DNA of 64,000 nucleotides from Clostridiaceae bacterium (lineage in GTDB: Bacteria > Bacillota > Clostridia > Christensenellales > CAG-138), in contig JBDKRL010000008.1 of assembly GCA_039683415.1 (NCBI GenBank), positions 527-64,526 of the forward strand. The letters run 5' to 3'. The notes beneath the pieces are model-generated. The model was not told where the DNA came from, ran no database searches, and saw nothing but the letters and a program-made list of their open reading frames with translations. Made by a program: the position numbers and the translations under genes. Shown here one piece after another: positions 31,198-34,231 of this stretch; the stretch's first letter is position 1; each line of letters starts with the position of its first letter.

Positions 31198-31812
31198 TTA
31201 TCCCGCGTTTTTCAAGTACTCTTCCAGCTTCTTTTTCACCCGTTGTATGGCGTTGTCCACGCACTTGGTGGACTTTTGCAGCGCGTCGGCAATCTGCTGA
31301 TACGAATACCCCAGCAGGTATAAATCCAGCGCGCCGCGTTCAAGCTTGCTCAGCGAATGCTCAATGCTGTCGGCAACGGCTTCGTAGCTCTCGCGGCCGA
31401 TGAGCACCTCCTCCGGGTCGCTGATCTGCGTGCTGGAGAGCACGTCGATCAGCGGGCGCTCGGTATCGCCTTCGTACACGGAGCGGTTGAGGGAGATATA
31501 GGTGTTGAGCGGAATGTGTTTTTTACGCGTTGCGCTCTTGATGGCGGTGATGATTTGGCGGGTGATGCAGAGCTCGGCAAACGCCCGAAAGGACGCCTGT
31601 TTATCGAACTGATAATCGCAAACCGCTTTGTACAGCCCGATCATGCCTTCCTGAATGATATCCTCGCGATCCGCGCCGATCAAAAAATACGTTCTCGCTT
31701 TGCTGCGGACTACCTGCTTATAACGCGCGTAGAGCATTTCCTCCGCGAGCGCGTCGCCGCCCCGATGCAGCGTTAAAAGCTGTTCGTCTGTCAGCAAATC
31801 GTAATGGTTCAT
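31198..31812 (-). CDS. sigH: RNA polymerase sigma factor SigH
   Basis: YFLIGADREDIIQEGMIGLYKA, AELCITRQIITAIKSATRKKHIPLNTYISL and DNAIQRVKKKL. Confidence 0.97.
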   Translation of the reverse strand: MNHYDLLTDEQLLTLHRGGDALAEEMLYARYKQVVRSKARTYFLIGADREDIIQEGMIGLYKAVCDYQFDKQASFRAFAELCITRQIITAIKSATRKKHIPLNTYISLNRSVYEGDTERPLIDVLSSTQISDPEEVLIGRESYEAVADSIEHSLSKLERGALDLYLLGYSYQQIADALQKSTKCVDNAIQRVKKKLEEYLKNAG

Positions 31813-33623
31813 TCCTGCCCCTGTGCGTCCTGACGTTTCTTTTCAAACATGAGCACGGCTGCGGCCACACCCGCGTTGAGCGAGCCGATTTTGCCGTACT
31901 GCGGGATGGCAACGAGGAAATCGCATTTCTCCGTCACGAGCTTGCCAATGCCTTCGCCTTCGCCGCCGATGACCAGCGCGAGCGGGCCGTTGAGACCCTG
32001 CTTTTCCATGGGGTTGCCCTTCATGTCCGCGCCCGCAACCCAGAGTTTGGCGCGTTTGAGTTCGTCGATGGCGGAGCCGATGTTAACCACGCGCGCAATT
32101 TTGATGTGCTCCGTTGCGCCAGCGCTCGCCTTGACGGTTGCGGAGGTGATGGAAGCGCTTCTGCGCTTGCCGATGATCACGCCGTGCGCGCCGACGCACT
32201 CCGCACTGCGGATGATGGAACCCATGTTGTGCGGGTCGAGGATGCCGTCGAGTACGATCACAAACGGTTCTTCGCCGCGCTCTCTGGCAACGGCAAGGAT
32301 ATCCGCAACGGTGCAGTACTCCACGCCCGCGGCATAGGCAACGATGCCCTGATGGTTGCCGGGCTTATCGCCATGGCCAAACGGCATGCAGATTTCGTCG
32401 AGATGATGTTTGTCCGTATCGCGAATCACCAGCGCGCGTTCTTTGGCCAGCGCGATGATTTCACGCAGGGAACCGTCCGGATCGCTCAATACTTCGATAC
32501 GGTCGATGCTGCGCCCGCTCTTGATCGCTTCCTTGACAGCGTTGCGACCAAGGATCAAGAATGGCAGTTCGTCCTGCTCGCGTGCGTCGTCCGGGAAGGT
32601 ATCGTTCTGGTCGTTGGCGCGAACGTCTTCGGGACGGCTGTCGTAAGCTTTGCGGAAAACGCCCCTGGGCTTATCGGCATAGGTGCGTTCGCCCTGCGGC
32701 TTGTCGCCGTAAGTGCGCTCACCCTGCGGCTTGTCGCCGTAAGGCTTGTTACCCTGATAGCCGCTTCCCTGCGGCCTGTCGCCGTAAGGCTTTCTTCCCT
32801 GATAGCCGCTTCCCTGCGGCCTGTCGCCGTAAGGCTTTCTTCCCTGATAGCCGCTGCCCTGCGGTCTGTCGCCGTAAGGCTTGCTGCCTTGATAGCCACC
32901 GCCAGCGGGCTTATCACCATAGGTGCGTTCACCCTGCGGCTTGTCGCCGTAAGGTTTGTTGCCCTGATAGCCACTGCCCTGCGGCCTGTCGCCGTAAGGC
33001 TTTCTTCCCTGATAGCCGCTGCCTTGCGGTCTGTCGCCGTAAGGTTTGCTGCCCTGATAACCGCCGCCAGCGGGCTTATCGCCATAGGTGCGTTCACCCT
33101 GCGGCTTATCGCCGTAAGGTTTGTTGCCCTGATAACCGCTGCCCTGCGGCCTGTCGCCGTAAGGCTTTCTTCCCTGATAGCCGCTGCCCTGCGGCCTGTC
33201 GCCATAAGGCTTGCTGCCCTGATAGCCGCTGCCAGCGGGCTTGTCGCCATAGGTGCGTTCGCCCTGCGGTCTGTCGCCGTAAGGCTTGCTGCCCTGATAG
33301 CCGCTGCCCTGCGGTCTGTCGCCGTAAGGCTTGCTGCCCTGATAGCCGCTGCCCTGCGGTCTGTCGCCGTAAGGTTTGCTGCCCTGATAGCCACTGCCTG
33401 CCGGCTTATCGCCGTAGGTCTTCTTGCCCTGATAACCGCCTGCGGGTTTGTCGCCGTAGGTCTTCTTGCCCTGATAACCGCCCGCGGGTTTGTCACCATA
33501 GGTCTTTTTACCTTGGTAGCCGCCCTTCCGCTCGCCGGAAGAGCTATTCCCACCCCGGTATTGCCCGCCGGTGGAACTTCCGCCGCGGTCGGGGCTGTAT
33601 TGTTGTTGTGTCATGGGGGTCAT
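31809..33623 (-). CDS. rlmB: 23S rRNA (guanosine2251-2'-O)-methyltransferase RlmB with a long N-terminal repeat extension (start may be 33614)
   Basis: GRNAV, HQGIVA, LDGILDPHNMGSIIRSAE, IGGEGEG and SLNAGVAAAVL motifs; mrnC-rlmB-sigH synteny. Confidence 0.95.
   Translation of the reverse strand: MTPMTQQQYSPDRGGSSTGGQYRGGNSSSGERKGGYQGKKTYGDKPAGGYQGKKTYGDKPAGGYQGKKTYGDKPAGSGYQGSKPYGDRPQGSGYQGSKPYGDRPQGSGYQGSKPYGDRPQGERTYGDKPAGSGYQGSKPYGDRPQGSGYQGRKPYGDRPQGSGYQGNKPYGDKPQGERTYGDKPAGGGYQGSKPYGDRPQGSGYQGRKPYGDRPQGSGYQGNKPYGDKPQGERTYGDKPAGGGYQGSKPYGDRPQGSGYQGRKPYGDRPQGSGYQGRKPYGDRPQGSGYQGNKPYGDKPQGERTYGDKPQGERTYADKPRGVFRKAYDSRPEDVRANDQNDTFPDDAREQDELPFLILGRNAVKEAIKSGRSIDRIEVLSDPDGSLREIIALAKERALVIRDTDKHHLDEICMPFGHGDKPGNHQGIVAYAAGVEYCTVADILAVARERGEEPFVIVLDGILDPHNMGSIIRSAECVGAHGVIIGKRRSASITSATVKASAGATEHIKIARVVNIGSAIDELKRAKLWVAGADMKGNPMEKQGLNGPLALVIGGEGEGIGKLVTEKCDFLVAIPQYGKIGSLNAGVAAAVLMFEKKRQDAQGQE
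32664..33524 (-). repeat. In-frame coding tandem repeats (42, 45 and 30 nt units) in rlmB
   Basis: 3x GGYQGKKTYGDKPA, 13x G(S/G)GYQG(S/R/N)KPYGD(R/K)PQ, 5x GERTY(G/A)DKP(A/Q/R). Confidence 0.95.
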
Positions 33624-33691
33624 TTCCTCGTTTCAAATCAAAATTGGGAATCCTGCCGCATTTCGCTCATGCGGAAAACCGGACGAACCGC

Positions 33692-34117
33692 TTATTTGGC
33701 GTCCGTCTTTAAGAAGTACTGCATGAGCTCGCTGAGCCGCGTGTCCGAACCCGTGAGAAACAGCCAGCCGATCAGCGCTTCCAAGCCCGTTGCGGTGTGG
33801 TAGTCCGCCGCTGAGGCATTTTTGGGCATGGTGCCACTGTGGGCATTGCGCCCGCGCTTGAAAATCGCTGTTTCTTCGGGGGTCAGCGCCTGCTCCATCC
33901 GCCGGTAAGCCGCCGCCTGTCCTGCCGCGCAAACCATGCGCGACGCGGCGAAGTGCAGCTCCCTTGGCGAGCGCGCGAATTCGTCCGTCAGGCAAATGCG
34001 CGCGTAAAGATCGCAAACAGTGTCCCCGATCAGCGCGAGCGTCAGCGGTGAAAGCTGCTTTGCGTCCGACGTGCGCGTAAAGGCGGACGCGGTTCGGATT
34101 TCTTCGATCATGGTCAT
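33692..34117 (-). CDS. mrnC: Mini-ribonuclease III
   Basis: LALIGDTV, AAGQA, KRGRNA and YHTATGLEALIGWL motifs. Confidence 0.93.
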   Translation of the reverse strand: MTMIEEIRTASAFTRTSDAKQLSPLTLALIGDTVCDLYARICLTDEFARSPRELHFAASRMVCAAGQAAAYRRMEQALTPEETAIFKRGRNAHSGTMPKNASAADYHTATGLEALIGWLFLTGSDTRLSELMQYFLKTDAK

Positions 34118-34154: not shown

Positions 34155-34231
34155 ACGAATCCTCATTTGTCGCGTAAAACGGGCAAAAACAGCGCGCCGG
34201 AACTATTCCGGCGCGCTGTTTGTTCGCCAAA

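Follow-up and report, generated by a model that had tools for sequence, protein, structure and literature searches.

Why should a bacterial rRNA methyltransferase carry almost three hundred residues of tandem repeat in front of its catalytic core, and what could such a head do for the enzyme? The question is raised by the rlmB gene of a Clostridiaceae bacterium (GTDB order Christensenellales; assembly GCA_039683415.1), which lies on the minus strand of a 64,000-nucleotide (nt) stretch of contig JBDKRL010000008.1 (positions 527 to 64,526), hereafter the window, to which all coordinates below refer. A reading of the letters alone (the sequence-only reading) had described the repeat as a prion-like G/Y/Q/S/R domain that might form an RNA-binding condensate and, with the neighboring Mini-III, concentrate the maturation of 23S rRNA. 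On the basis of the results below, we consider it probable, with moderate confidence, that the tract is a disordered, net-basic and multivalent appendage that binds rRNA or pre-ribosomes.

Is the protein RlmB at all? The coding sequence (31809..33614, minus strand) encodes 601 amino acids (aa) from its second ATG, which is the form used by gene callers (P0001), and the computed mass of the full-length product is 64 kDa. An alternative open reading frame (ORF) from the first ATG at 33623 would give 604 aa (31809..33623, minus strand). A GAGGAA resembling a ribosome-binding site (33624..33629, minus strand) adjoins the first ATG and lies 9-10 nt 5' of the second; because of this spacing, the ATG at 33614 is favored as the start. 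The product scored 207.3 bits against the RlmB equivalog profile TIGR00186 of NCBIfam (cut-off 160.15), and its best solved structure was Escherichia coli RlmB (1GZ0, E=1.1e-35), with which the SPOUT motifs could be aligned. Pfam identified an L30e-like substrate-binding domain (PF08032, residues 356-436, E=6.2e-10; 32316..32558, minus strand) that is N-terminal to a SPOUT methyltransferase domain (PF00588, SpoU_methylase, residues 454-593, E=8.6e-38; 31845..32264, minus strand), which is the arrangement expected of RlmB. The 3.2-Mb genome gave just one further SpoU-family match, to a distant paralogue (E=1.6e-17), so that this gene encodes the organism's only RlmB. Judged by these profile and structure matches, the protein is a true RlmB, a SPOUT enzyme expected to 2'-O-methylate G2251 of 23S rRNA.

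The region preceding the folded core begins with a non-repeat leader of ~30 aa, MTPMTQQQYSPDRGGSSTGGQYRGGNSSSGERK (33525..33623, minus strand), which is also found in the close relatives P0002-P0004, L023 and L026. It is followed by the tandem-repeat array (32664..33524, minus strand; 287 aa, residues 34-320) and by an acidic linker of 35 residues with a net charge of -5 (32559..32663, minus strand), which ends in DELPF directly before the core. DELPF is nearly invariant: D348, E349, P351 and L353 were invariant or nearly so in 43 homologues.

When split behind every (K/R)P(A/Q/R), the translation yielded, as assembled, three units of 14 aa (GGYQGKKTYGDKPA), 13 of 15 aa (G[SG]GYQG[SRN]KPYGD[RK]PQ) and five of 10 aa (GERTY[GA]DKP[AQR]). 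Tandem Repeats Finder reported a period of 165 nt (4.0 copies, 91% matches, score 1080) with sub-periods of 45, 42 and 30 nt; the three complete 165-nt (55-aa) copies (33263-33099, 33098-32934 and 32933-32769, minus strand) each comprise one 10-mer and three 15-mers. The unit counts, the length of 287 aa and the higher-order period agree exactly with the sequence-only reading. Y[G/A]D[K/R]P occurs 21 times and GYQG 16 times, and the constant core of the units can be read from their translations as (K/R)(P/S/T)YGD(K/R)P. The array consists of G (26%), Y (13%), P (12%), Q (10%), K (10%), D (7%), R (7%) and S (6%). Thus, the residues named in the G/Y/Q/S/R label are all present, but the label is incomplete because Pro, Lys and Asp are equally prominent. 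In total, the array has 37 Tyr, which follow one another at regular distances of 6, 9 or 10 residues, together with 20 Arg and 30 Lys. The 287 residues include no I, L, V, M, F, W or C, and have a grand average of hydropathy of -1.93, an isoelectric point of 9.7 and a net charge of +24; the whole N-terminal region of ~320 residues is likewise free of hydrophobic residues and has a net charge of about +25, with one Tyr per 6-10 residues. AlphaFold2 with a 43-sequence alignment predicted no secondary structure for residues 1-325 (predicted local distance difference test, pLDDT, 32-40; core 50-85), and the tract is thus predicted to be disordered. The single-sequence run gave a pLDDT of 35 throughout, core included, and was hence uninformative.

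Is this region translated? In-frame starts occur at codons 1 and 4, and the next one is a TTG at codon 356, which already falls within the first of the folded domains. The 13 15-mers had 1, 2 and 11 variable columns at codon positions 1, 2 and 3, respectively (the last being 11 of 15 columns), and their pairwise comparison gave 216 synonymous and 106 non-synonymous codon differences (mean non-synonymous divergence, dN, 0.044; synonymous divergence, dS, 0.49; dN/dS ~0.09). The three full 165-nt copies differed pairwise by 11-16 nt, with dN of 0.008-0.032, dS of 0.34-0.44 and dN/dS of 0.02-0.07. The repeat copies are thus old enough to have diverged, yet their peptide has been kept in frame by selection. 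The start-codon distribution, the third-position bias, the low dN/dS and the open frames in relatives (see below) all support the earlier proposal of a real translated region, and these patterns indicate that RlmB is really made with a repeat head of ~290 residues. They also indicate an array that gains and loses units rapidly while its peptide sequence is under purifying selection. It should be noted that other-frame ORFs over the repeat could mislead gene callers. Three long ORFs, at 32106-33803 (plus strand, 565 aa), 32561-33712 (plus strand, 383 aa) and 32555-33553 (minus strand, 332 aa), were rejected as by-products of the stop-free repeat.

More than 2000 RlmB homologues were retrieved by a search limited to lengths of 332-1057 aa, and 119 of the closest were parsed for tails; the related loci examined all came from metagenome-assembled genomes. 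All 119 homologues possessed a Y/G/K-rich N-terminal tail of 85-352 aa with scarcely any hydrophobic residues (medians: Tyr 11.4%, Gly 18%, K+R 21.6% and D+E 14.7%), and the net charge of these tails ranged from 0 to +22 (median +13). Within the genus, a SpoU-family match was found in 18 of 18 genomes, and the 16 in which the rlmB locus was assembled had open frames of 330-652 aa. Relatives whose core is 94-95% identical share the 30-aa leader and the acidic linker and have different arrays between them; examples are 7-9 copies of a 13-mer, GGYEKRSYGDKPQ, and a higher-order unit of 39-40 aa. More distant members of the family have K-rich or N-rich spacers and retain an (S/T/P)YG(D/E)(K/R) core. 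Across the order, RlmB frames are 240-300 aa in most families, and long frames occur in the family of the present bacterium and in several others. The variation in repeat number across relatives that the sequence-only reading had called for was thus found, and an array of varying length is kept open in the genus. From these comparisons, the array appears to be rapidly remodeled, whereas its composition, charge and five-residue core are conserved. The closest public homologue, P0002 (core 95% identical), is labeled as Candidatus Cryosericum sp.; its contig is probably mis-binned, because all other relatives are labeled as Christensenellaceae or Clostridia.

If the head is indeed an RNA-binding appendage, its Lys and Arg residues would contact the phosphate backbone and its Tyr residues would stack on bases. 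SPOUT enzymes are obligate dimers (PMC1829167), and the two tails of a dimer would hold RlmB on nascent or unfolded pre-23S rRNA or on pre-50S particles, a tethering that would raise the local concentration and residence time of the enzyme. The tail could perhaps also loosen RNA structure transiently, like the glycine-arginine-rich (GAR) head of fibrillarin and the tails of bacterial DEAD-box helicases, and the acidic linker would separate it from the catalytic core. In the presence of sufficient RNA, the tail may form a coacervate. The support for an RNA or ribosome direction is one of association, in that the repeat is shared with RNA and translation proteins in other organisms.

This association was observed when the repeat alone was searched with phmmer against 1.84 billion representative proteins, which gave 431 matches. 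Among the best 150 of the 431, which were the ones analyzed, many were generic GDRPxG arrays and 45 carried the Tyr/Phe motif. The domains on these 45 were Helicase_C (11), DEAD (8), pseudouridine synthase together with S4 (8) and IF2_N (4), with one case each of RsmB/F, an RsmI-like methylase, CvfB, RimM and SpoU. Of the ten top-scoring motif-bearing matches, three were DEAD-box helicases (in the C-terminal tail) and four were IF-2 proteins (in the N-terminal region), the others being an RlmB, a CvfB and a protein of unknown type; nine of the ten were RNA or translation proteins. Further examples came from two genomes that belong to the same order but to other families. In the first (G184), IF-2 (L016, G184:C1:105598-108915) has nine QQQGQRPYGDRP repeats in its N-terminal region and the RlmB frame is 254 aa; in the second (G109), an RsmB (16S rRNA m5C methyltransferase) encoded downstream of def-fmt has an N-terminal GERRPYGDRPA array and the RlmB frame is 269 aa. 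This RsmB gene is split over contigs C36 and C29 (L014, L020), the assembly being broken within the array. In the present genome, the motif was found only on RlmB, with 21 copies as compared with fewer than two in any other six-frame ORF of at least 60 aa. Two six-frame scans of the genome for motif and composition revealed no second carrier, the remaining matches being out-of-frame GC-rich ORFs, and genome-wide motif scans found no such repeat in Mini-III. A weak match at G000:C7:2313-2633 was examined as a second carrier and rejected as an unrelated GSSVA repeat. Literature searches for the motif strings, PYGD(K/R)P included, returned no report, and those for RlmB in Christensenella and for prion-like domains in bacterial methyltransferases returned nothing relevant. 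A wider proposal would be that PYGD(K/R)P-type repeats are a portable module, placed on different ribosome-biogenesis and translation proteins across Clostridia, that targets its carriers to nascent rRNA or to a nucleolus-like condensate. We regard this as unlikely at present; if true, bacteria would possess an equivalent of the GAR/RGG nucleolar code of eukaryotes.

Several points weigh against an RNA-binding role of the tail. First, the association of the motif with RNA proteins may partly reflect a general bias of bacterial disordered tails. Second, many Christensenellales RlmB frames are 240-300 aa, which shows that RlmB as such can function without the tail, and the four-fold variation of tail length in close relatives indicates that its exact length is under no tight constraint. 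Finally, a strict YGD(K/R)P that includes an acidic residue exceeds the needs of non-specific RNA binding, and a protein partner could be involved.

The explanation that comes closest to the preferred one is that the tail is a condensate scaffold, which phase-separates alone or with RNA through Tyr-Arg/Lys and electrostatic interactions and thereby forms nucleolus-like foci that concentrate 23S maturation, Mini-III included. Prion-like or FUS-type domains are defined by two features, an enrichment in G, S, Y, Q and N and a depletion of both proline and charged residues, and the tyrosines of FUS occur in [G/S]Y[G/S] contexts. The array is enriched as such domains are (G+S+Y+Q+N, 56.4%), but it is not depleted: its charged fraction is 0.26 and its Pro content 12%. 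None of its 37 Tyr residues is in a [G/S]Y[G/S] context, the contexts being GYQ, PYG, TYG and TYA, and both RGG and RG have a count of 0. In addition, Lys exceeded Arg in 99 of the 119 related tails, and Lys is a weaker sticker than Arg in FUS-family work. The prion-like or FUS-family label was therefore abandoned; on account of its charge, proline, Tyr context and Lys excess, the tract is better termed a Tyr-periodic net-basic polyampholyte.

Several features speak for the condensate proposal: each tail has a high valence, with the Tyr, Arg and Lys counts given above, which would be doubled in the obligate SPOUT dimer (PMC1829167), the stickers are evenly spaced at 6, 9 or 10 residues, the tail is predicted to be disordered, and the RhlE tails provide a bacterial precedent (PMC11260450). 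However, a tract with 26% charged residues and 12% Pro would be atypical for a prion-like domain, the Lys excess described above points the same way, and the effects of fibrillarin on RNA are independent of the condensed phase (PMC12862394). No client-recruitment grammar is visible either, because in this genome the motif is present on RlmB and absent from Mini-III, IF-2 and the helicases. The link to Mini-III that had been drawn from co-transcription turned out to be weak: the gene order is genus-wide and not specific to the tail, and Mini-III has no repeat. Adjacency of mrnC, the Mini-III gene, and rlmB is ancestral in Bacillota. Thus, with a grammar unshared in the genome, a tail-less Mini-III and an ancestral adjacency, condensation is less favored as the primary role, and we regard it as possible but improbable. 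Given the valence, condensate formation is plausible in vitro, but it would not be required for the proposed rRNA tethering.

We give less credence to the idea that the array is a slippage by-product, in which a short ancestral basic tail has been ballooned by unequal recombination and the extra length is near-neutral and functionless. Tail lengths among relatives do vary from 85 to 384 aa, near-identical strains amplify different units, many members of the order are tail-less, and RlmB is dispensable in E. coli (PMC1829167), all of which would be expected of such a process. Nevertheless, the peptide has been retained despite divergence (dN/dS 0.02-0.09 among copies at dS 0.34-0.49), more than 100 orthologous tails are without frameshift or stop, their composition and net positive charge stay within narrow bounds, and the motif recurs on other RNA proteins. 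Turnover of units is evident in these data; that the length they add has no function seems doubtful.

Another explanation, which we hold to be still less probable, is that the tail is an array of short linear motifs, with each YGD(K/R)P bound by a folded domain of a partner (for example, a ribosomal protein, RNA polymerase or a chaperone) that tethers RlmB to a machine. It would account for a five-residue core containing Asp and Pro that remains constant across families while the spacers shift from Q/G-rich to K-rich or N-rich, and for the conservation of this core on different carrier proteins. However, no candidate partner is evident, nothing in the neighborhood co-varies with the array, and at least 20 copies exceed the need of one-to-one docking. 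Finally, it is scarcely credible that the tract is mis-assembled, or is an untranslated leader with the true start near LILGRNAV: the TTG at codon 356 does have a weak AGGA 13 nt upstream and related short-read assemblies do break within such arrays, but the codon-position bias and low dN/dS, the in-frame arrays in hundreds of independent assemblies (closed chromosomes included) and a longest exact internal repeat of 69 nt, with no 77-mer occurring twice in the tract, argue against both versions.

As no 77-mer is repeated, reads of 100-150 nt can resolve the array. Closed Christensenellaceae chromosomes of 3.70 Mb (core 95% identical), 3.40 Mb and 3.67 Mb encode RlmB proteins of 603, 626 and 631 aa, respectively. 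There is no doubt that the tract exists; its unit number is given as assembled. It was also observed that contigs of several related short-read genomes (L015 and L021 of G177; L018 of G126) end inside PYGD(K/R)P arrays. Such arrays are a recurrent cause of assembly breaks, and their lengths in draft genomes are probably under-reported.

How does this RlmB compare with known systems? E. coli RlmB (YjfH, 1GZ0) has the L30e-like and SPOUT knot domains in common with it, but is extension-free at ~245 aa, whereas the present protein has 350 extra residues, of which 287 are tandem repeat. A positively charged head has been described on YfiF and on eukaryotic relatives of RlmB, and bacterial RlmB orthologues were reported to be without an extension (Tkaczuk et al., 2007; PMC1829167). 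Those heads are likewise basic, disordered and attached to an RlmB-family SPOUT enzyme; the present one is on a true RlmB, is 3-4 times longer, is tandemly repeated and is rich in Tyr, Pro and Lys.

By analogy, the layout also resembles that of fibrillarin/Nop1, in which a disordered, cationic and aromatic-punctuated GAR head is N-terminal to an rRNA ribose 2'-O-methyltransferase (PMC7194090, PMC12862394). The GAR domain of Nop1/fibrillarin binds RNA transiently and equally inside and outside droplets (PMC12862394). However, fibrillarin has a Rossmann fold, is guided by small nucleolar RNAs and contains RGG, whereas the present enzyme is a SPOUT protein whose head lacks the clustered RGG/RG of GAR domains and has Lys, Tyr, Pro and Asp in place of Arg, Gly and Phe. 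The disordered cationic N-terminal head (net charge +24, isoelectric point 9.7) is therefore an analogy of architecture only, and the likeness to fibrillarin is convergence and not family membership.

The C-terminal regions of RhlE1 and RhlE2 offer a second analogy, being basic disordered appendages on RNA-acting enzymes as the present tail appears to be; the RhlE tails promote both the binding and the unwinding of RNA as well as phase separation (PMC11260450). They differ in being C-terminal on a helicase, whereas the present tail is N-terminal on a methyltransferase and far more regular. Close sequence look-alikes of the repeat are carried by the C-termini of DEAD-box helicases. With FUS-family domains, the array shares its richness in G/S/Y/Q/N (56%) and its even Tyr spacing; by composition, it is not prion-like, as its charge, proline and Tyr contexts described above set it apart.

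Basic disordered tails on RNA enzymes are thus already known. What sets this case apart is a very long and regular Tyr-periodic repeat on a true RlmB, a peptide that is selected despite remodeling, and the occurrence of its core on other ribosome and translation proteins in other lineages. This RlmB provides a concrete and easily cloned test case for whether a repeat grammar brings bacterial enzymes to nascent rRNA, and could tell whether droplets are necessary for, or incidental to, rRNA targeting, as is now being asked of fibrillarin.

The genes adjacent to rlmB were also examined. mrnC (33692..34117, minus strand), which encodes the RNase III-domain protein Mini-III (PF00636, E=2.4e-19), lies 68 nt upstream of rlmB, and sigH (31198..31812, minus strand; NCBIfam SigH NF006148, 292.5 bits) follows it. 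The ATG of sigH overlaps the stop of rlmB as ATGA (31809-31812) with an AGGA just upstream, an arrangement suggesting that translation of the sporulation sigma factor is coupled to that of rlmB. Between rlmB and sigH, there is no yacP/rae1-like gene. All related loci examined across the genus (L002-L012) have the order mrnC-rlmB-sigH. A scan of the gap between mrnC and rlmB revealed no consensus terminator, and the hairpin in this gap does not exceed shuffled sequence in stability (z = 1.16). Directly after htpG, a strong GC-rich hairpin with a T-run (34185-34230, minus strand) was noticed that the consensus terminator scan had not listed. It is probably, as judged from its position and letters, the htpG terminator, in which case the promoter of mrnC-rlmB-sigH would fall in the ~60 nt before mrnC.

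A relaxed scan of the genome for other basic disordered tails detected two proteins, one PSP1-like and the other an IspH-S1 fusion, whose tails differ from that of RlmB. By eye, the former (G000:C1, offset 576785) is a PSP1/RicT-like protein with a basic Q/P-rich tail, and the latter (G000:C4, plus strand, offset 52487, 843 aa) is a fusion of IspH and ribosomal protein S1 that has a linker of EEKIE repeats and a C-terminal tail rich in Arg, Ser and Thr. In addition, a 524-aa ORF on the minus strand of G000:C1 (offset 446413, reverse complement) encodes a membrane protein whose cytoplasmic N-terminus is rich in Tyr and consists of G(Y)TPRG-type repeats; its C-terminal region resembles, by eye, peptidoglycan-binding repeats, and its Tyr-repeat grammar differs from that of RlmB.

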